The position numbers and the translations under genes are program-made. The notes beneath the pieces are model-generated. The model made no database searches and was not told where the DNA came from. It saw only the letters and a program-made list of their open reading frames with translations. Shown one piece after another: positions 2,663-44,894 of a DNA stretch of 64,000 nucleotides. How positions within the stretch are numbered: the first letter of the stretch is position 1; each line of letters starts with the position of its first letter. Source of the stretch: Escherichia coli (GTDB lineage Bacteria; Pseudomonadota; Gammaproteobacteria; Enterobacterales; Enterobacteriaceae); NCBI RefSeq assembly GCF_965641715.1, contig NZ_OZ282453.1. One strand, 5' to 3'.

Positions 2663-5600
2663 ATGCTTACCGAAGACGACTTAGAACAGCTTTGCCAGGG
2701 CTGGTTTGCCGAACAAGGTTGGGAAATCCATCATGGGCCAGATATTGCCCCCGATGGCTGTAACCCGCAACGCGCCAGCTATCATGATGTATTCCTGACG
2801 CCCGTGTTGAACGCCTGCCTGCAAAAAATCAACCCGCACCTGCCCACTGACGTCTTCGAACAGGTCATCTCCCGTATTACTCGCGCTGAAAGCCCGGATC
2901 TGATTGCCAGTAACAAAGCCTTTCATCACTGGTTGCTGGAAGGGGTTCCGGTACAGTACCGTCGCGACGAAGAACTTATCCACGACCACGCCCTGCTGGT
3001 GGATTTTAGCCAGCCGCAAAACAACCGTTTTATGGTGGTCAATCAAATGACTATCAGCGGAACGAAACAGCCTCGCCGCCCGGATATCATCTGCTTTATT
3101 AACGGAATACCACTGGCGGTTGTGGAACTAAAAAGCCCTGTCGATGACAAGGTAGATATCTGGGATGCGTACCACCAGTTACAGACCTATAAAGATGAAA
3201 TACGCGACCTGTTTATCAGCAATGAAGCGTTGATTGTCAGTGATGGTTATCTGGCGCGTGTGGGGTCCCTGACCGCCACGGAAGAACGTTTTATGCCGTG
3301 GAAGACCATCAGCAATGAAAATGACAAGCCGTTGCTGGAATGGCAACTGGAAACTATGGTACGGGGTTTCTTCAACCGGGAATTGCTGCTCGACTATATC
3401 CGCTATTTCGTTCTGTTTGAAAATAACGATGAAAGGCTAATTAAGAAAATAGCTGGTTATCACCAGTTCCACGCGGTGCGTGAGGCCGTGCAGGCGACGA
3501 TCGTTGCTTCGACCGGTAAGCAACTGGTACTGCACAGTAATATTCAGCCAGGCAGTAAGAAAGCAGGCGTGGTCTGGCATACGCAGGGTTCCGGTAAAAG
3601 CATCTCCATGTGTTGCTATGTCGGCAAACTGTTGCAACAGCCGGAGATGGGCAACCCGACGATTGTTGTTGTGACCGATCGTAACGATCTGGACGGCCAG
3701 CTTTATGGTACATTCTGCCAGGCACAGGAGCTGCTCAAGCAAATGCCGGTACAGGCAGATGATCGTGAAACATTGCGTGATCTGCTTGCAACTCGCGATG
3801 CTGGCGGCATTATCTTTACCACCGTGCAGAAATTCTCCCCGGAAGAAGGGGAAAACGCCCATCCGATTCTCAATGGACGCAGCAATATCGTTGTTATTTC
3901 CGATGAAGCGCACCGCAGCCAGTACGGCATGAAAGCCAACCTGGATCGTAAAACCGGCGTCTATAAATACGGTTACGCTAAACATATGCGCGACGCGCTA
4001 CCTAACGCCTCGTTTCTGGGATTTACCGGTACACCGGTTTCGGCAGAGGATCGCGATACTCGCGCTGTATTTGGCGATTACGTCTCAATTTATGATATTC
4101 AGGACGCTGTGGACGATGGCGCAACGGTGCCTATTCACTATGAATCCCGGCTGGCAAAACTCGATCTCAATCATGAAGAGCTGGCGGCGCTGTCCGATCA
4201 GGTTGAAGAACTGATTGAGGACGATGAGCTGGATCAGAGAGAAAAAACCAAAGGTGAATGGAGCCGTCTGGAGAAACTAGTTGGTGCTAAACCACGTCTT
4301 CAGCAGATCGCTGCCGATCTGATTTCTCACTTTGAGAAGCGCAATACCGTAATGGACGGCAAGGCGATGATTGTCGCCATGAGCCGTGAAATCTGCGTCC
4401 ATCTTTACGATGAAATTATTGCGTTGCGTCCGGAGTGGCACGATGACGATCCTGAAAAAGGGCAAATCAAAATCGTGATGACCGGTACAGCATCTGATAA
4501 GGCAATGCTGCAACCGCATATCTACAACAAACGGACTAAAAAACGGCTGGAATCCCGCTTCAAGAATGTGAACGACCCGCTGAAGCTGGTGATAGTGCGT
4601 GATATGTGGCTGACCGGCTTTGATGCCCCATGCTGTCACACTATGTATATCGACAAACCGATGCGCGGCCATAACCTGATGCAGGCTATTGCCCGTGTCA
4701 ACCGGGTATTCAAAGACAAGCCCGGCGGGCTGGTGGTGGATTATATTGGTATCGCCAATGAGCTGAAACTGGCGCTGAAAACTTATACCGATGCAAACGG
4801 TAAAGGTGATGCGACCGTCAACGCTGAAGAAGCACTGGCAATCATGCTGGAAAAGCTGGACATCATCCACGGTATGTTTGCCAAAACGGCAACGTCAGCG
4901 GGTTTTGATTACACCGGCTTTGAAGCTCATGCGCAGAAGTTGCTAGTACCAGTTGCAAACTATGTGCTCGGCCTTGAAGACGGTAAGAAGCGTTTTCTCG
5001 ATAACGTACTGGCAATTACTAAAGCCTGGTCGCTTTGCTGTACGCTGGATGCGGCGCAGCCTTATAAACTAGAGATTGCTTTCTTGTCGGCGGTAAAAGC
5101 TGCTATCAGCAAATTCACCAGTGTGGACAAAAAAATAAGCCAGGCTGAGAAGAACTCCGCGCTGAAACAGATTCTGGATAATGCCGTAATTGCTAACGGC
5201 GTGGATGATATTTTCACGCTGGCTGGTCTGGATAAACCGAATATTGGCTTGCTTTCAGATGAATTCTTGCAGGAAGTCCGCGATATGCCATATCGAAATC
5301 TGGCGGTAGAGCTGCTGGAAAAACTGATTAATGACGGTATCCAGTCCCGTACAAAAAACAATGTAGTGCAGGAGAGGAAATATTCAGAACGTCTTCAGGC
5401 TGTATTGATTAAATACAACAACCGGGCTATTGAGACGGCGCAGGTGATTGAAGAGCTGATCCAGATGGCGAAGGATTTTCAGTCTGCAATGGCGCGTGAT
5501 GATGCGCTTGGCCTGAATCCTGACGAGATCGCTTTCTACGATGCACTGGCAGAAAACGAAAGCGCCGTCCGGGAGTTAGGAGATGAGGTACTTAAGAAAC

Positions 5601-23521: not shown

Positions 23522-23965
23522 ATGAAAAACGCGACGTTCTACCTTCTGGACAATGACACCACCGTCGATGGCTTAAGCGCCGTTGAGCAACTGGTGTGTG
23601 AAATTGCCGCAGAACGTTGGCGCAGCGGTAAGCGCGTGCTCATCGCCTGTGAAGATGAAAAGCAGGCTTACCGGCTGGATGAAGCCCTGTGGGCGCGTCC
23701 GGCAGAAAGCTTTGTTCCGCATAATTTAGCGGGAGAAGGACCGCGCGGCGGTGCGCCGGTGGAGATCGCCTGGCCGCAAAAACGCAGCAGCAGCCCGCGC
23801 GATATATTGATTAGTCTGCGAACAAGCTTTGCAGATTTTGCCACCGCTTTCACAGAAGTGGTAGACTTCGTTCCTTATGAAGATTCTCTGAAACAACTGG
23901 CGCGCGAACGCTATAAAGCCTACCGCGTGGCTGGTTTCAACCTGAATACGGCAACCTGGAAATAA
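23522..23965 (+). CDS. holC: DNA polymerase III chi subunit
   Basis: 147 aa starting [14 protein letters not shown]; stop overlaps the valS start. Confidence 0.9.
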
Positions 23966-26820
23966 TGGAAAAGACATATAACCCACAAGATATCGAACAG
24001 CCGCTTTACGAGCACTGGGAAAAGCAGGGCTACTTTAAGCCTAATGGCGATGAAAGCCAGGAAAGTTTCTGCATCATGATCCCGCCGCCGAACGTCACCG
24101 GCAGTTTGCATATGGGTCACGCCTTCCAGCAAACCATCATGGATACCATGATCCGCTATCAGCGCATGCAGGGCAAAAACACCCTGTGGCAGGTCGGTAC
24201 TGACCACGCCGGGATCGCTACCCAGATGGTCGTTGAGCGCAAGATTGCCGCAGAAGAAGGTAAAACCCGTCACGACTACGGCCGCGAAGCTTTCATCGAC
24301 AAAATCTGGGAATGGAAAGCGGAGTCCGGCGGCACCATTACCCGTCAGATGCGCCGTCTCGGCAACTCCGTCGACTGGGAGCGTGAACGCTTCACGATGG
24401 ACGAAGGCCTGTCCAATGCGGTGAAAGAAGTTTTCGTTCGTCTGTATAAAGAAGACCTGATTTACCGTGGCAAACGCCTGGTAAACTGGGATCCGAAACT
24501 GCGCACCGCTATCTCTGACCTGGAAGTGGAAAACCGCGAATCGAAAGGTTCGATGTGGCACATCCGCTATCCGCTGGCTGACGGTGCGAAAACCGCAGAC
24601 GGTAAAGATTATCTGGTGGTCGCGACTACCCGTCCGGAAACCCTGCTGGGCGATACTGGCGTAGCCGTTAACCCGGAAGATCCGCGTTACAAAGATCTGA
24701 TTGGCAAATATGTCATTCTGCCGCTGGTTAACCGTCGTATTCCGATCGTTGGCGACGAACACGCCGACATGGAAAAAGGCACCGGCTGCGTGAAAATCAC
24801 TCCGGCGCACGACTTTAACGACTATGAAGTGGGTAAACGTCACGCGCTGCCGATGATCAACATCCTGACCTTTGACGGCGATATCCGTGAAAGCGCCCAG
24901 GTGTTCGATACCAAAGGTAACGAATCTGACGTTTATTCCAGCGAAATCCCGGCAGAGTTCCAGAAACTCGAGCGTTTTGCTGCACGTAAAGCAGTCGTTG
25001 CTGCGGTTGACGCACTCGGCCTGCTGGAAGAAATTAAACCGCACGACCTGACCGTTCCTTACGGCGACCGTGGCGGCGTGGTTATCGAACCAATGCTGAC
25101 CGACCAGTGGTACGTGCGTGCCGATGTACTGGCGAAACCGGCGGTTGAAGCGGTTGAGAACGGCGACATTCAGTTCGTACCGAAGCAGTACGAAAACATG
25201 TACTTCTCCTGGATGCGCGATATTCAGGACTGGTGTATCTCTCGTCAGCTGTGGTGGGGTCACCGTATCCCGGCATGGTATGACGAAGCGGGTAATGTTT
25301 ATGTTGGCCGCAACGAAGAAGAAGTGCGCAAGGAAAATAACCTCGGTGCCGACGTTGCCCTGCGTCAGGACGAAGACGTTCTCGACACCTGGTTCTCTTC
25401 TGCGCTGTGGACCTTCTCTACCCTAGGCTGGCCGGAAAACACCGACGCACTGCGCCAGTTCCACCCAACCAGCGTGATGGTATCTGGTTTCGACATCATT
25501 TTCTTCTGGATTGCCCGCATGATCATGATGACCATGCACTTCATCAAAGATGAAAATGGCAAACCGCAGGTGCCGTTCCACACCGTTTACATGACCGGCC
25601 TGATTCGTGACGACGAAGGCCAGAAGATGTCCAAATCCAAGGGTAACGTTATTGACCCGCTGGATATGGTTGACGGTATTTCGCTGCCGGAACTGCTGGA
25701 GAAACGTACCGGCAATATGATGCAGCCGCAGCTGGCGGACAAAATCCGTAAGCGCACCGAGAAGCAGTTCCCGAACGGTATTGAGCCACACGGTACTGAC
25801 GCGCTGCGTTTCACCCTGGCGGCACTGGCTTCTACCGGTCGTGACATCAACTGGGATATGAAGCGCCTGGAAGGTTACCGTAACTTCTGTAACAAGCTGT
25901 GGAACGCCAGCCGCTTTGTGCTGATGAACACAGAAGGTCAGGATTGCGGCTTTAACGGCGGTGAAATGACGCTGTCGCTGGCGGATCGCTGGATTCTGGC
26001 GGAGTTCAACCAGACCATCAAAGCGTACCGCGAAGCGCTGGACAGCTTCCGCTTCGATATCGCTGCAGGCATTCTGTATGAGTTCACCTGGAACCAGTTC
26101 TGTGACTGGTATCTGGAGCTGACTAAGCCGGTAATGAACGGTGGCACCGAAGCCGAACTGCGCGGTACTCGCCATACGCTGGTGACTGTACTGGAAGGTC
26201 TGCTGCGCCTCGCGCATCCGATCATTCCGTTCATCACCGAAACCATCTGGCAGCGTGTGAAAGTACTTTGCGGTATCACTGCCGACACCATCATGCTGCA
26301 GCCGTTCCCGCAGTATGATGCGTCTCAGGTTGATGAAGCGGCGCTGGCCGACACCGAGTGGCTGAAACAGGCGATCGTTGCCGTACGTAACATCCGTGCA
26401 GAAATGAATATCGCGCCGGGCAAACCGCTGGAGCTGCTGCTGCGTGGTTGCAGCGCGGATGCAGAACGTCGCGTAAATGAAAACCGTGGCTTCCTGCAAA
26501 CCCTGGCGCGTCTGGAAAGCATCACCGTGCTGCCTGCCGATGACAAAGGTCCGGTTTCCGTTACGAAGATCATCGACGGCGCAGAGCTGCTGATCCCGAT
26601 GGCTGGCCTCATCAACAAAGAAGATGAGCTGGCGCGTCTGGCGAAAGAAGTGGCGAAGATCGAAGGCGAAATCAGCCGTATCGAGAACAAGCTGGCGAAT
26701 GAAGGCTTTGTCGCCCGCGCACCGGAAGCGGTCATCGCGAAAGAGCGTGAGAAGCTGGAAGGCTATGCGGAAGCGAAAGCGAAACTGATTGAACAGCAGG
26801 CTGTTATCGCCGCGCTGTAA
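23965..26820 (+). CDS. valS: Valine--tRNA ligase
   Basis: 951 aa; class I aaRS HIGH (HMGHAF) and KMSKS motifs; C-terminal coiled coil. Confidence 0.95.
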
Positions 26821-26842: not shown

Positions 26843-26870
26843 AAGGCCGGAGCATGCTCCGGCCTTTTTA
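26843..26870. terminator. Bidirectional rho-independent terminator between valS and yjgN
   Basis: GGCCGGAGC-ATG-CTCCGGCC followed by TTTTT. Confidence 0.75.
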
Positions 26871-26874
26871 TCTC

Positions 26875-28071
26875 TTACAGAAATGGTAAAGAAGGCATAA
26901 TTCCCCGTGAAATACTGGCTAAGAAGCCTTTATCTGGTTGTTCTTCTTTATTGATTAAAGGAAGGTCATCCAAATCGCCCAGCAAATACGTATTTTTTGC
27001 CTGCCAGTCAATCATCCATATTTTCAGCAGTGGATAAGCCAGACCGCCCGTAATCCCGGATATCACCACCAACGCACACATGCGATAAAGCATACCGTGG
27101 TATGTTAAAGTTGAGCGAAAACGAATACGCCCATCATTCAGTGACAGGTTGCTCATAAAATGATTTCGCAACGACACCGTTAAATAACTGGTGCTAACAG
27201 CAATCCCAAAATAATAGATTAACTGCGCGATTATCATTTTACGTTGCATTTCCATAAATTGCTGTAAATTCTCAATATCATCATTTGCATACACAGAACT
27301 ATCATACGCATTTAATATTTGATCGAAGATAATATAACCAGCAACAGCGAGAAAAGGTAATAAAGCTAAAAATGCGAGGATGGCATATTTTATACAATAC
27401 GCAGTATCTAATTTCACCTTGAAACGATGTATACCGAAACTGGTATTGCTCCAGAGAAAACTCATTACCAGGCTATATAAAGTACCATTAAAAATACCAA
27501 TGGAAACAATACCAACTATTGCCATCAGAACCACAGATATAATAACACTACTTGAACTATTGGCATGTAGCATCTTTGTCGAGATAAAGAAAACAGTCCC
27601 CATCCCAATGGCCATTAAAATCGGCAAGAAAAAGGTTACCCACCAGAACCTTTTCATAGAGCAATTAAAACTAAATCTTACGCCGTTGAGACTAGTCATC
27701 AAGGCCTGATAACGCAGTCCTTTTGCTGCCATAAATATAAGCAAAACCAACAGTGACAAAGTCAAAACACAGCCAACAAGCGGCATATCTGCTGACACTG
27801 TCATTAAGATTGCGAAATAGAAAAAAACAAAAACAAGACAACTAAAAAAAACATTCCCACCGGTAATCCCATAAGAAAATCGTTGTCCGTTAACTTCCAT
27901 ATTAGCATAGAGATAACGCTTACATTTCATTAATGCCCATGGTAAATAGATACCTAGCGTTATAATCGTTAACAACACATTCACCACACAAATAAGAAAA
28001 TATCTCTCACCTGTACCATGAAAAACAAACGAATGGGACGGAACATCCATTTCATTAATAACTTGAGCCAT
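26875..28071 (-). CDS. yjgN: DUF898-family inner membrane protein
   Basis: 398 aa from MAQVINEMDV; multiple hydrophobic segments; AT-rich. Confidence 0.8.
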   Translation of the reverse strand: MAQVINEMDVPSHSFVFHGTGERYFLICVVNVLLTIITLGIYLPWALMKCKRYLYANMEVNGQRFSYGITGGNVFFSCLVFVFFYFAILMTVSADMPLVGCVLTLSLLVLLIFMAAKGLRYQALMTSLNGVRFSFNCSMKRFWWVTFFLPILMAIGMGTVFFISTKMLHANSSSSVIISVVLMAIVGIVSIGIFNGTLYSLVMSFLWSNTSFGIHRFKVKLDTAYCIKYAILAFLALLPFLAVAGYIIFDQILNAYDSSVYANDDIENLQQFMEMQRKMIIAQLIYYFGIAVSTSYLTVSLRNHFMSNLSLNDGRIRFRSTLTYHGMLYRMCALVVISGITGGLAYPLLKIWMIDWQAKNTYLLGDLDDLPLINKEEQPDKGFLASISRGIMPSLPFL

Positions 28072-28263
28072 AAAAATTCCCTGAATTAAAAAATCCATTG
28101 ATATAATTTATAGATACAGACAGTAAAATGTTCTGCCACGTTACAATACTCTTATCAGTAATAGGCTGGCAAAAACTTTATTGCTTTATAAGACGCTTGC
28201 GCACGTAAGAAGAGAGTGGTATTAAACAAATGTATAATTACTTTATTTTTATTGGGTTAAACT

Positions 28264-41374: not shown

Positions 41375-42796
41375 ATGATGAGCAAAATAAACCAAACGGA
41401 TATCGATCGGTTGATTGAACTGGTCGGCGGGCGCGGCAATATTGCGACGGTGAGCCACTGTATTACTCGCCTGCGCTTTGTCCTCAACCAACCGGCCAAT
41501 GCCAGACCGAAAGAAATTGAGCAACTCCCCATGGTGAAAGGCTGTTTCACCAATGCCGGGCAATTTCAGGTGGTGATTGGCACCAACGTGGGTGATTACT
41601 ATCAAGCACTGATAGCGTCAACCGGACAGGCGCAGGTTGATAAAGAGCAGGTAAAAAAAGCCGCCCGGCAGAATATGAAATGGCATGAGCAGTTGATCTC
41701 TCATTTCGCAGAGATCTTCTTCCCGTTGCTGCCCGCGTTGATTAGCGGCGGTTTGATCCTCGGTTTTCGCAATGTGATCGGCGATTTGCCCATGAGCAAC
41801 GGTCAAACGCTGGCGCAAATGTACCCTTCCCTGCAAACGATCTACGATTTTCTGTGGTTGATCGGTGAAGCGATCTTCTTCTACCTGCCGGTCGGGATTT
41901 GCTGGTCAGCGGTGAAAAAAATGGGCGGCACGCCGATCCTTGGTATCGTACTTGGCGTAACGCTGGTTTCTCCACAGCTGATGAACGCTTATCTGCTCGG
42001 GCAGCAGCTGCCGGAAGTGTGGGACTTTGGCATGTTCAGCATCGCCAAAGTGGGCTATCAGGCGCAGGTGATCCCGGCACTATTAGCCGGGCTGGCGCTG
42101 GGCGTTATTGAAACTCGCCTTAAACGCATCGTGCCAGATTACCTCTATCTGGTGGTGGTGCCCGTCTGTTCGCTGATCCTCGCGGTGTTCCTCGCCCATG
42201 CGCTGATTGGTCCGTTTGGACGCATGATTGGCGATGGCGTTGCCTTTGCGGTACGTCACCTGATGACCGGCAGCTTTGCTCCGATTGGCGCGGCATTGTT
42301 TGGCTTCCTGTACGCCCCGCTGGTGATCACCGGGGTACACCAGACCACGCTTGCTATTGATTTGCAGATGATTCAAAGCATGGGTGGTACGCCAGTGTGG
42401 CCGCTGATTGCGCTGTCGAATATCGCTCAGGGCTCCGCCGTGATAGGCATTATCATTTCCAGCCGCAAGCACAATGAACGCGAGATCTCCGTGCCTGCGG
42501 CGATCTCCGCCTGGCTTGGGGTCACTGAGCCTGCAATGTACGGCATCAACCTGAAATATCGCTTCCCGATGCTGTGCGCGATGATTGGTTCTGGTCTGGC
42601 AGGATTGCTATGCGGCCTGAACGGCGTTATGGCGAATGGCATCGGCGTAGGCGGCCTGCCGGGAATTCTCTCGATTCAACCAAGCTACTGGCAGGTGTTT
42701 GCGCTGGCAATGGCTATCGCCATCATCATCCCGATTGTACTCACCTCGTTTATCTATCAGCGGAAATACCGCCTGGGCACGCTGGACATTGTTTAA
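41375..42796 (+). CDS. treB: PTS trehalose-specific EIIBC component
   Basis: 473 aa; EIIB cysteine motif (VSHCITRLR) plus polytopic EIIC. Confidence 0.92.
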   Translation: MMSKINQTDIDRLIELVGGRGNIATVSHCITRLRFVLNQPANARPKEIEQLPMVKGCFTNAGQFQVVIGTNVGDYYQALIASTGQAQVDKEQVKKAARQNMKWHEQLISHFAEIFFPLLPALISGGLILGFRNVIGDLPMSNGQTLAQMYPSLQTIYDFLWLIGEAIFFYLPVGICWSAVKKMGGTPILGIVLGVTLVSPQLMNAYLLGQQLPEVWDFGMFSIAKVGYQAQVIPALLAGLALGVIETRLKRIVPDYLYLVVVPVCSLILAVFLAHALIGPFGRMIGDGVAFAVRHLMTGSFAPIGAALFGFLYAPLVITGVHQTTLAIDLQMIQSMGGTPVWPLIALSNIAQGSAVIGIIISSRKHNEREISVPAAISAWLGVTEPAMYGINLKYRFPMLCAMIGSGLAGLLCGLNGVMANGIGVGGLPGILSIQPSYWQVFALAMAIAIIIPIVLTSFIYQRKYRLGTLDIV

Positions 42797-42804
42797 TTTT
42801 CTTC

Positions 42805-42822
42805 GGGGCGCAATTGCGCCCC
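42805..42822. other. Perfect 18-bp palindrome between treB and treC (GGGGCGCAATTGCGCCCC)
   Basis: Read directly; 9 nt after the treB stop and 23 nt before the treC ATG. Confidence 0.8.
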
Positions 42823-42845
42823 CTCGCATTCGCAGGAATAACGTA

Positions 42846-44501
42846 ATGACTAATCTTCCCCACTGGTGGCAAAACGGCGTTATCTACCAGATTTATCCAA
42901 AGAGTTTTCAGGACACCACGGGTAGCGGTACCGGCGATTTACGTGGCGTTATCCAACGCCTGGACTATCTGCATAAACTGGGCGTTGATGCCATCTGGCT
43001 AACCCCCTTTTATGTCTCTCCGCAGGTCGATAACGGTTACGACGTAGCGAACTATACAGCGATTGATCCCACCTACGGCACGCTGGACGATTTTGACGAA
43101 CTGGTGACGCAGGCAAAATCGCGCGGGATTCGTATCATTCTCGATATGGTGTTTAACCATACCTCTACCCAACATGCCTGGTTTCGCGAGGCGCTGAACA
43201 AAGAAAGCCCTTACCGCCAGTTTTATATCTGGCGCGATGGAGAACCAGAAACGCCACCGAACAACTGGCGTTCAAAATTTGGCGGTAGTGCGTGGCGCTG
43301 GCATGCGGAAAGCGAACAGTACTATTTGCATCTCTTTGCACCAGAACAGGCGGATCTCAACTGGGAGAATCCAGCGGTACGCGCAGAGCTGAAAAAAGTC
43401 TGTGAGTTCTGGGCCGATCGTGGGGTCGACGGGTTGCGCCTGGATGTGGTGAATCTGATCTCCAAAGACCCGCGTTTCCCTGAAGACCTGGACGGCGACG
43501 GGCGTCGCTTCTACACCGACGGGCCACGAGCACACGAGTTTTTGCACGAGATGAACCGCGATGTGTTTACGCCACGCGGGTTAATGACCGTAGGTGAAAT
43601 GTCCTCCACCAGCCTTGAGCATTGCCAGCGATACGCGGCTCTGACAGGCAGTGAATTGTCGATGACCTTTAATTTTCATCACCTGAAGGTCGATTATCCC
43701 GGTGGTGAAAAATGGACGCTGGCTAAACCTGACTTTGTGGCGTTGAAAACATTGTTCCGCCACTGGCAACAAGGAATGCACAACGTAGCATGGAATGCCT
43801 TGTTCTGGTGTAACCACGATCAGCCGCGCATTGTTTCTCGCTTTGGTGATGAAGGTGAATACCGCGTGCCTGCGGCAAAAATGCTGGCGATGGTGCTGCA
43901 TGGCATGCAGGGAACGCCGTATATCTACCAGGGCGAAGAGATTGGCATGACCAACCCACATTTCACGCGCATTACTGACTATCGCGACGTAGAGAGCCTC
44001 AATATGTTTGCCGAGCTGCGCAACGATGGGCGTGATGCCGACGAGTTATTGGCAATCCTCGCCAGTAAATCCCGTGACAACAGCCGCACGCCCATGCAAT
44101 GGAGCAACGGCGATAATGCCGGGTTTACGGCTGGCGAACCGTGGATTGGCCTGGGCGATAACTATCAACAAATCAACGTAGAAGCCGCGCTGGCCGATGA
44201 TTCCTCGGTGTTTTACACCTACCAAAAGTTAATCGCACTGCGTAAGCAGGAAGCCATCCTGACATGGGGCAATTACCAGGATCTGCTGCCAAACAGCCCT
44301 GTATTGTGGTGCTATCGCCGTGAATGGAAGGGGCAAACCTTGCTGGTCATTGCCAACCTTAGCCGTGAGATCCAACCCTGGCAGCCAGGGCAAATGCGCG
44401 GCAACTGGCAGCTTGTGATGCATAACTACGAAGAAGCCTCACCACAACCCTGTGCCATGAATTTACGGCCTTTTGAGGCTGTCTGGTGGTTACAGAAGTA
44501 A
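42846..44501 (+). CDS. treC: Trehalose-6-phosphate hydrolase
   Basis: 551 aa from MTNLPHWWQNG; GH13 motifs; the track ORF is extended upstream across the treB end. Confidence 0.92.
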   Translation: MTNLPHWWQNGVIYQIYPKSFQDTTGSGTGDLRGVIQRLDYLHKLGVDAIWLTPFYVSPQVDNGYDVANYTAIDPTYGTLDDFDELVTQAKSRGIRIILDMVFNHTSTQHAWFREALNKESPYRQFYIWRDGEPETPPNNWRSKFGGSAWRWHAESEQYYLHLFAPEQADLNWENPAVRAELKKVCEFWADRGVDGLRLDVVNLISKDPRFPEDLDGDGRRFYTDGPRAHEFLHEMNRDVFTPRGLMTVGEMSSTSLEHCQRYAALTGSELSMTFNFHHLKVDYPGGEKWTLAKPDFVALKTLFRHWQQGMHNVAWNALFWCNHDQPRIVSRFGDEGEYRVPAAKMLAMVLHGMQGTPYIYQGEEIGMTNPHFTRITDYRDVESLNMFAELRNDGRDADELLAILASKSRDNSRTPMQWSNGDNAGFTAGEPWIGLGDNYQQINVEAALADDSSVFYTYQKLIALRKQEAILTWGNYQDLLPNSPVLWCYRREWKGQTLLVIANLSREIQPWQPGQMRGNWQLVMHNYEEASPQPCAMNLRPFEAVWWLQK

Positions 44502-44513
44502 ATCTTCGCTAAG

Positions 44514-44544
44514 CCCCGGTAATGCCGGTCATTCCGGGGTTTTG
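44514..44544 (+). terminator. treC terminator
   Basis: CCCCGG...CCGGGG hairpin followed by TTTTG. Confidence 0.6.
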
Positions 44545-44894
44545 TCTGTCAGTATGTTGTTTTTGTTGATTTTTCAACCAGCAAATTCATTAAAAAATTT
44601 ACATAACGCTGTAGCGCCCGTCATCCGTACGCTCTGCTTTTTACTTTGAGCTACATCAAAAAAAGTTCAAACATCCTTGATGCAAAGCACTATATATAGA
44701 CTTTAAAATGCGTCCCAACCCAATATGTTGTATTAATCGACTATAATTGCTACTACAGCTCCCCACGAAAAAGGTGCGGCGTTGTGGATAAGCGGATGGC
44801 GATTGCGGAAAGCACCGGAAAACGAAACGAAAAAACCGGAAAACGCCTTTCCCAATTTCTGTGGATAACCTGTTCTTAAAAATATGGAGCGATC

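Follow-up and report, generated by a model that had tools for sequence, protein, structure and literature searches.

The window analyzed here is a stretch of 64,000 nt of Escherichia coli DNA (contig NZ_OZ282453.1) that carries the trehalose genes treB and treC on its plus strand. Based on the list of open reading frames (ORFs) and E. coli annotations, treB (41375-42796, with the stop codon TAA at 42794-42796) encodes the 473-aa trehalose EIIBC of the phosphotransferase system (PTS), and the ORF, annotations, and homologues identify treC (42846-44501) as the gene for a 551-aa trehalose-6-phosphate hydrolase. The two genes are separated by a gap of 49 nt, which contains the treC Shine-Dalgarno sequence AGGA (42834-42837) upstream of the ATG start codon (42846-42848). 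Downstream of treC, CCCCGG..CCGGGG followed by UUUUGU (44514-44545, plus strand) forms the canonical treC/operon terminator, which we used for comparison. The treB sequence is said to have been reported by Klein et al. in 1995. Of 5,426 complete E. coli genomes, 5,424 match the junction at a place annotated as treB and treC, and a 60-nt sequence spanning it occurs at a median of one place per E. coli genome. In the junction stretch, the window is identical to K-12 MG1655, for which treC (4463054-4464709) and treB (4464759-4466180) are both annotated on the minus strand of NC_000913.3; MG1655 positions were converted to window coordinates via this annotation.

Three other features of the window were recorded. 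Between the treR stop codon (41256) and the treB start codon (41375), there is a 14-bp perfect palindrome, CGGGAACGTTCCCG (41296-41309, plus strand), followed by TTTTTAAATT. It has an AACGTT center, which is typical of LacI-family operators, making this site upstream of treB a likely TreR operator; a scan also called it as terminator-like, after treR. The mgtA ORF (37234-39930, minus strand) is divergent from treR and has in its leader a Mg2+ riboswitch (Rfam RF01056, 125.8 bits; 40024-40139, minus strand), which is the only real Rfam match near the junction. Finally, a 24-bp perfect palindrome, AAGGCCGGAGCATGCTCCGGCCTT (26843-26866), followed by TTTTAT and located between the convergent ORFs at 23965-26820 (plus strand) and 26875-28098 (minus strand), looks like an ordinary bidirectional terminator.

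The treB-treC junction encodes a short G/C-rich hairpin

The original prediction placed a perfect 18-bp palindrome in the treB-treC junction, and the palindrome, GGGGCGCAATTGCGCCCC, is located exactly there, at 42805-42822 on the plus strand. It begins 8 nt past the treB stop codon, after a spacer composed only of pyrimidines (UUUUCUUC, 42797-42804), and its end is separated by 11 nt from the AGG in the Shine-Dalgarno sequence of treC. In RNA, the palindrome folds into a hairpin of seven G/C pairs, in which the 5' arm GGGGCGC (42805-42811) pairs with the 3' arm GCGCCCC (42816-42822) around an AAUU tetraloop (42812-42815). The stem is thus 1 bp shorter than the 8 bp originally proposed because the eighth pair, A-U, would leave a loop of only 2 nt and is not formed. 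The isolated hairpin has an energy of -15.0 kcal/mol and a pair probability of ~0.97. It is followed by the tail CUCGCAUUCGC (42823-42833), of which the 9 nt directly 3' of the stem, CUCGCAUUC, include three U; in this strain, the hairpin is therefore without a U-tract, as had been noted from the sequence.

The length of the palindrome is compatible with chance. Perfect palindromes of at least 18 bp were present in 65 of 200 first-order Markov simulations of the 64-kb window, and the window itself contains the longer, 24-bp palindrome described above. Likewise, an 81-nt region around the hairpin folded no better than shuffled sequences (z = -1.1). Searching the window with up to three mismatches allowed returned a single match to the palindrome, Rfam searched with a permissive E-value matched no family at the treB-treC junction, and a consensus promoter/terminator scan did not call the hairpin. 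The case for a functional element consequently depends on its position, on its conservation, and on a mapped RNA 3' end.

The stem is conserved across Enterobacteriaceae

To compare treB-treC junctions across Enterobacteriaceae, as the original prediction had proposed, we scanned genome contigs for TreC and obtained 80 loci from ~20 genera, of which 77 include the junction. The hairpin is neither absent nor unconserved in relatives: 74 of these 77 junctions have it intact, with a GC stem of 6-8 bp, and one more (L020) has it with a single C-A mismatch. In the remaining two, both from Buttiauxella species, an ERIC-like long hairpin replaces the GC hairpin. The hairpin begins 5-15 nt past the treB stop codon; the exception is L014, in which an earlier in-frame treB stop codon places it 40 nt away. 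Throughout the relatives, the 5- to 15-nt spacer between stop codon and stem is nearly devoid of purines and variable in sequence (65-69% column identity).

The commonest stem, GGGGCGC/GCGCCCC, is found at 59 loci. In a hairpin-anchored comparison, the arms were ~95% conserved, on a par with first and second positions of codons, while identity was 70% in the loop, 65-69% in the flanking spacers, and 68-71% at third codon positions in the neighboring parts of treB and treC. In a MAFFT alignment of 72 distinct sequences, 98.4% of the stem cells were paired. Covariation in this alignment was thin, with double changes in one pair only, because the sequence of the stem is almost constant. Changes that preserve pairing nevertheless occur: C-G is replaced by U-A in L008 and L014, Buttiauxella stems read GGGGCCA/UGGCCCC and GGGGCCG/CGGCCCC, the stem of L079 is GGGCGCGG/CCGCGCCC, that of Klebsiella pneumoniae is GGGGCGCC/GGCGCCCC, and three G-U wobble changes retain pairing as well. 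The loop, by contrast, exists in 27 variants of 3-6 nt; 27 loci have AGTT, and only 5 of 75 have AATT. Because both the sequence and the length of the loop vary, the perfect DNA palindrome is not conserved, and what is kept is the RNA stem. Together, these comparisons suggest that the stem is an RNA element under conservation beyond chance.

The same data bear on the proposal that the palindrome could be a protein-binding site. The inverted repeat, perfect over 18 bp in this strain, and its conserved arm sequence would fit recognition by a dimeric protein (for instance, TreR or a different regulator) or, alternatively, a cruciform. However, the center varies in sequence and length, the compensatory changes in the arms preserve pairing and not a fixed motif, and the palindrome is internal to the transcription unit, with the promoter 1.4 kb away. 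Nor does the hairpin resemble CGGGAACGTTCCCG, the LacI-type palindrome found in the promoter region of treB, and the sequence at 42805-42822 lacks the fixed half-site spacing and conserved center of TreR-type, LacI-family operators. The variable arm spacing and center disfavor a DNA-binding site, and of all explanations considered in this work, we regard a function at the DNA level as the most improbable.

Variation within E. coli and in outgroups

O157:H7, a B2 strain, and BL21 share the same hairpin, AATT loop included. What commonly differs among E. coli genomes is a base 3' of the stem, at window position 42831: the window, K-12, and 754 complete genomes have C (AUUCG), while most of the other ~4,650 E. 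coli genomes, judged from sampled strains, apparently have T (AUUUG) as their single difference, which is also the consensus of other genera. The K-12-type C makes the tail after the hairpin even poorer in U.

Two 12-bp direct repeats, GGCACGCTGGAC, are present at 42776-42787, at the end of treB, and at 43077-43088, within treC. In O145:NM genomes (e.g., E. coli O145:NM FWSEC0002), the 301 bp between these repeats are deleted, removing the hairpin and fusing treB and treC in frame into a 941-aa ORF (P0086, P0089, and P0101); RefSeq annotates two pseudogenes instead. In the two Buttiauxella species with a replaced hairpin, B. gaviniae and B. brennerae, the gap measures 118-164 nt and contains an ERIC/IRU-like sequence, …CAGGAGCTTACTAAAGTAAGTGACTGGGGTGAGCG… (L077, 2336-2501; L078, 2382-2501), and these gaps fold to -61 and -32 kcal/mol, respectively.

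Since a protein homologue search returned close relatives only, a deeper set was collected by tblastn against PLSDB records, which yielded Duffyella, Pantoea, Aeromonas, K. pneumoniae, Proteus, and Clostridium. The Proteus junction was set aside as not comparable because treC is not the next gene after treB. Two Erwiniaceae, Duffyella and Pantoea soli, have plasmid-borne treBC operons in which the gap is 16-18 nt and without a hairpin; the element is thus not required for a working treBC operon. In Aeromonas caviae (L084, ~1918-1940), a 9-bp GC hairpin of unrelated sequence, GGCGGAGCC cug GGCUCCGCC, lies 13 nt past the treB stop codon with CUUUAUCGUU as its tail, and Clostridium butyricum (L087, ~3620-3650) has an AU-rich hairpin followed by CUUUUAAAU directly after treP and before treC. 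These unrelated hairpins at trehalose PTS-treC junctions of distant bacteria, both with U-containing tails and with one example of each, suggest a recurring need for structure at this position.

An RNA 3' end maps 5 nt past the stem

Adams et al. (2021; PMC7815308) mapped RNA 3' ends in MG1655 by Term-seq. Their supplemental file 1 lists, for cells in LB at an OD600 of 0.4, a 3' end at 4464728(-) that is classified as "primary" for treB, i.e., at most 50 bp downstream of a gene, and is covered by an average of 425,606 reads. This end corresponds to window position 42827 in the tail, 5 nt past the last base of the stem. The 3' end of the treC terminator in the same file, 4463010(-), has 64,109 reads and is located 6 nt past its own stem. 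The treB end thus has 6.6-fold more reads than that of the treC terminator, keeping in mind that counts of reads at 3' ends are not calibrated to measure ratios between transcripts.

The treB 3' end is listed in one of the three conditions (LB, OD 0.4) and not in the sheets for LB at an OD of 2.0 or for M63, probably because treBC is expressed only in the first. Five more 3' ends, classified as "internal," lie within treB between MG1655 4465154 and 4466176 (minus strand) with 24,000-49,000 reads each in LB at an OD of 0.4 (PMC7815308); these ends are consistent with active decay of the treB mRNA. In supplemental file 2 of the same study, no Rho (bicyclomycin-sensitive) region is called inside treB or treC (4463xxx-4464xxx), with the caveat by the authors that Rho sites may be under-called, and the nearest called Rho region is in nrdD (PMC7815308). 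The TERMITe and enterohemorrhagic E. coli (EHEC) ProQ supplements do not mention treB, and our literature search found no paper that discusses the treB-treC hairpin. The 3' end at the hairpin is therefore already visible in a public data set, apparently undiscussed, at an element that is itself well conserved.

With a mapped 3' end and a conserved stem in hand, the idea that the palindrome is a functionless remnant or a product of chance can be judged. It is true that palindromes of 18 bp arise in about one-third of shuffled windows, that Erwiniaceae treBC operons do without the hairpin, and that one E. coli lineage has deleted it; however, the arms have been conserved over ~20 genera in which loop and flanks have drifted, and the dominant RNA 3' end is tied to the hairpin. 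We consider this explanation very improbable.

Features for and against transcription termination

The main rival explanation for the 3' end in E. coli is a real but weak intrinsic termination, which probably dominates in lineages with U-rich tails. The hairpin would then be a leaky Rho-independent terminator or attenuator within the operon, at which the polymerase releases a fraction of transcripts 7-9 nt past the stem, the released ends are trimmed to +5, and readthrough expresses treC. Several observations point in this direction. A GC stem with a tetraloop is followed by a 3' end a few nucleotides downstream in vivo, as at the treC terminator (+6), and no Rho region is called. The tail in most relatives is UUCGCAUUU, with U at +1, +2, and +7 to +9; most E. 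coli genomes likewise have AUUUG instead of the AUUCG of the window and K-12; and several relatives have true U-tracts, including L060 (UUCUUUUUUG), L061, L064, and L068 (CUUUUUU), and L006 (CCUUUUUUGU).

On the other hand, E. coli RNA polymerase normally requires a U-rich proximal tract, which counts against reading the hairpin as a terminator. Such a tract is lacking in the window, where the tail CUCGCAUUC has U at 3 of 9 positions; in addition, an A-tract is absent from the upstream spacer, and the terminator scan mentioned above passed over the hairpin. To compare hairpins quantitatively, we used a d'Aubenton-Carafa-type discriminant, d, calculated with modern energies and therefore approximate only, which was -24 for the window hairpin (U-tract score T = 0.66), +0.15 for the treC terminator, and -2.5 for the treR terminator. 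Values of d for the relatives spread between -35 and +32. Their median, -4, is near those of the genuine treC and treR terminators, and 15 of 75 scored above 0, favoring actual termination in these lineages. Based on these features, we regard termination as a possible but not the likely source of most of the E. coli ends.

The treC translation signals lie outside the stem

The original prediction also offered modulation of treC translation or of mRNA processing as functions of the stem. Control of treC translation could be exerted if the stem or a larger fold altered ribosome access, be it as an insulator, as a standby site, or through pairing of the spacer with the Shine-Dalgarno sequence. 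In line with such a role, the distance from the end of the stem to the AGG is tightly kept (10-14 nt in 73 of 75 species, with a mode of 11), the block CGCAUUUGCAGGAA 3' of the stem is conserved, and in the minimum-energy fold of the E. coli sequence, UUCUU of the spacer pairs with AGGAA. The CAGGA of the treC Shine-Dalgarno sequence is invariant or nearly so in the alignment (A1).

Nevertheless, the Shine-Dalgarno sequence is located outside the helix, 11 nt beyond the stem, the folding energy of the region is ordinary, and the consensus fold of 76 sequences (RNAalifold) contains the hairpin alone. Over 75 species, the ensemble probability of pairing between the spacer and the Shine-Dalgarno sequence had a median of 0.03 and a mean of 0.09. 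Based on the consensus fold and these ensemble probabilities, we rejected sequestration of the Shine-Dalgarno sequence by the pyrimidine spacer. Moreover, regulation of translation leaves the strong 3' end at 42827 unexplained. Thus, of the two functions originally offered, the one in mRNA processing is supported in that the stem is tied to 3'-end formation or processing by the Term-seq end 5 nt beyond it, while a role in treC translation appears quite unlikely.

A related scenario would couple the hairpin to translation of treB instead. In such a translation-sensitive attenuator, a ribosome finishing treB close behind the polymerase would cover or melt the outer pairs of the stem and allow readthrough into treC, and if translation of TreB lagged, the stem would form and the transcript would end. 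With the hairpin starting only 5-15 nt (here 8 nt) past the treB stop codon, the attenuator would include the spacer, which is conserved as short and purine-free, as well as CGCAUUUGC, the conserved tail. If this were the case, expression of the hydrolase would be tied to successful synthesis of the transporter, the membrane protein TreB. We consider the scenario unlikely, if somewhat less so than control of treC translation.

DISCUSSION

Here, we report that the perfect palindrome between treB and treC corresponds to a conserved RNA stem-loop immediately upstream of a mapped RNA 3' end in E. coli. The explanation we favor, as reasonably probable, is that the palindrome specifies an intercistronic stem-loop in the treBC transcript, located 8 nt past the treB stop codon, by which the 3' end of a treB-only RNA is set and protected; in E. 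coli, it would act mainly as a barrier to exonucleases. The 3'-to-5' exonucleases PNPase and RNase II, degrading the RNA from sites of cleavage or termination further downstream in treC, would stall at the stem, and the trimming products would accumulate as an abundant and stable treB-only RNA. Because the E. coli tail is poor in U, we infer that most ends arise from such stalling; weak factor-independent termination may supply a smaller share, which could be larger in relatives with U-rich tails. As a consequence, the levels of treB and treC mRNA would be uncoupled, giving more message for the transporter than for the hydrolase from one promoter, and RNA that extends into treC would keep an accessible treC ribosome-binding site.

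Intercistronic hairpins with comparable effects are known. Those of the Rhodobacter puf operon are mRNA stabilizers that bring about differential expression within the operon. Similarly, Newbury et al. reportedly described in 1987 REP hairpins between malE and malF as intercistronic mRNA stabilizers that cause differential expression of the operon. The treB hairpin resembles both in that it directly follows the upstream cistron, that RNA comprising the upstream gene only accumulates, and that an excess of upstream message, here predicted for treB, would result. It differs from them in that it is not a REP or BIME element, being single-copy and without the REP consensus, and in that the puf structures are much longer. 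The ERIC-like long hairpin that fills the same gap in B. gaviniae and B. brennerae, recognized by its similarity to an E. coli copy, has no sequence in common with the window hairpin, and the latter measures 18 nt in comparison to ~127 nt for ERIC. With intrinsic terminators, the window element shares the GC-rich 7-bp stem, the tetraloop, the end ~5 nt past the stem, and, in relatives, U-rich tails, but the defining U-tract is missing (3 U in 9; d = -24).

The hairpin matches the stable E. coli stem-loops without U-rich tails that Dar and Sorek (2018; PMC6061677) described at steady-state 3' ends, where they protect against PNPase and RNase II. In common with that class, the treB element has a stable stem-loop, no U-rich sequence, and a precise steady-state 3' end immediately downstream. 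However, that class was defined for Rho-dependent transcripts with rut sites just downstream, while no bicyclomycin-sensitive region is called in treC. Also unlike that class, the treB hairpin is located inside an operon, 11 nt before the Shine-Dalgarno sequence of the next gene.

Differential expression of two genes in one operon is an ordinary strategy, and our data do not indicate a new mechanism. The junction offers a clean, single-copy, and deeply conserved test case, with a tail that is poor in U in E. coli and, at the other extreme, rich in U in Kosakonia, Trabulsiella, and K. michiganensis, and this natural series of tails could be used to apportion 3' ends within operons between termination and exonuclease stalling. 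For trehalose metabolism, the implication concerns a textbook operon: treB and treC are co-transcribed, yet a treB-only species ending at the hairpin appears to dominate the RNA pool, so that the transporter and the hydrolase need not come from equal amounts of message.
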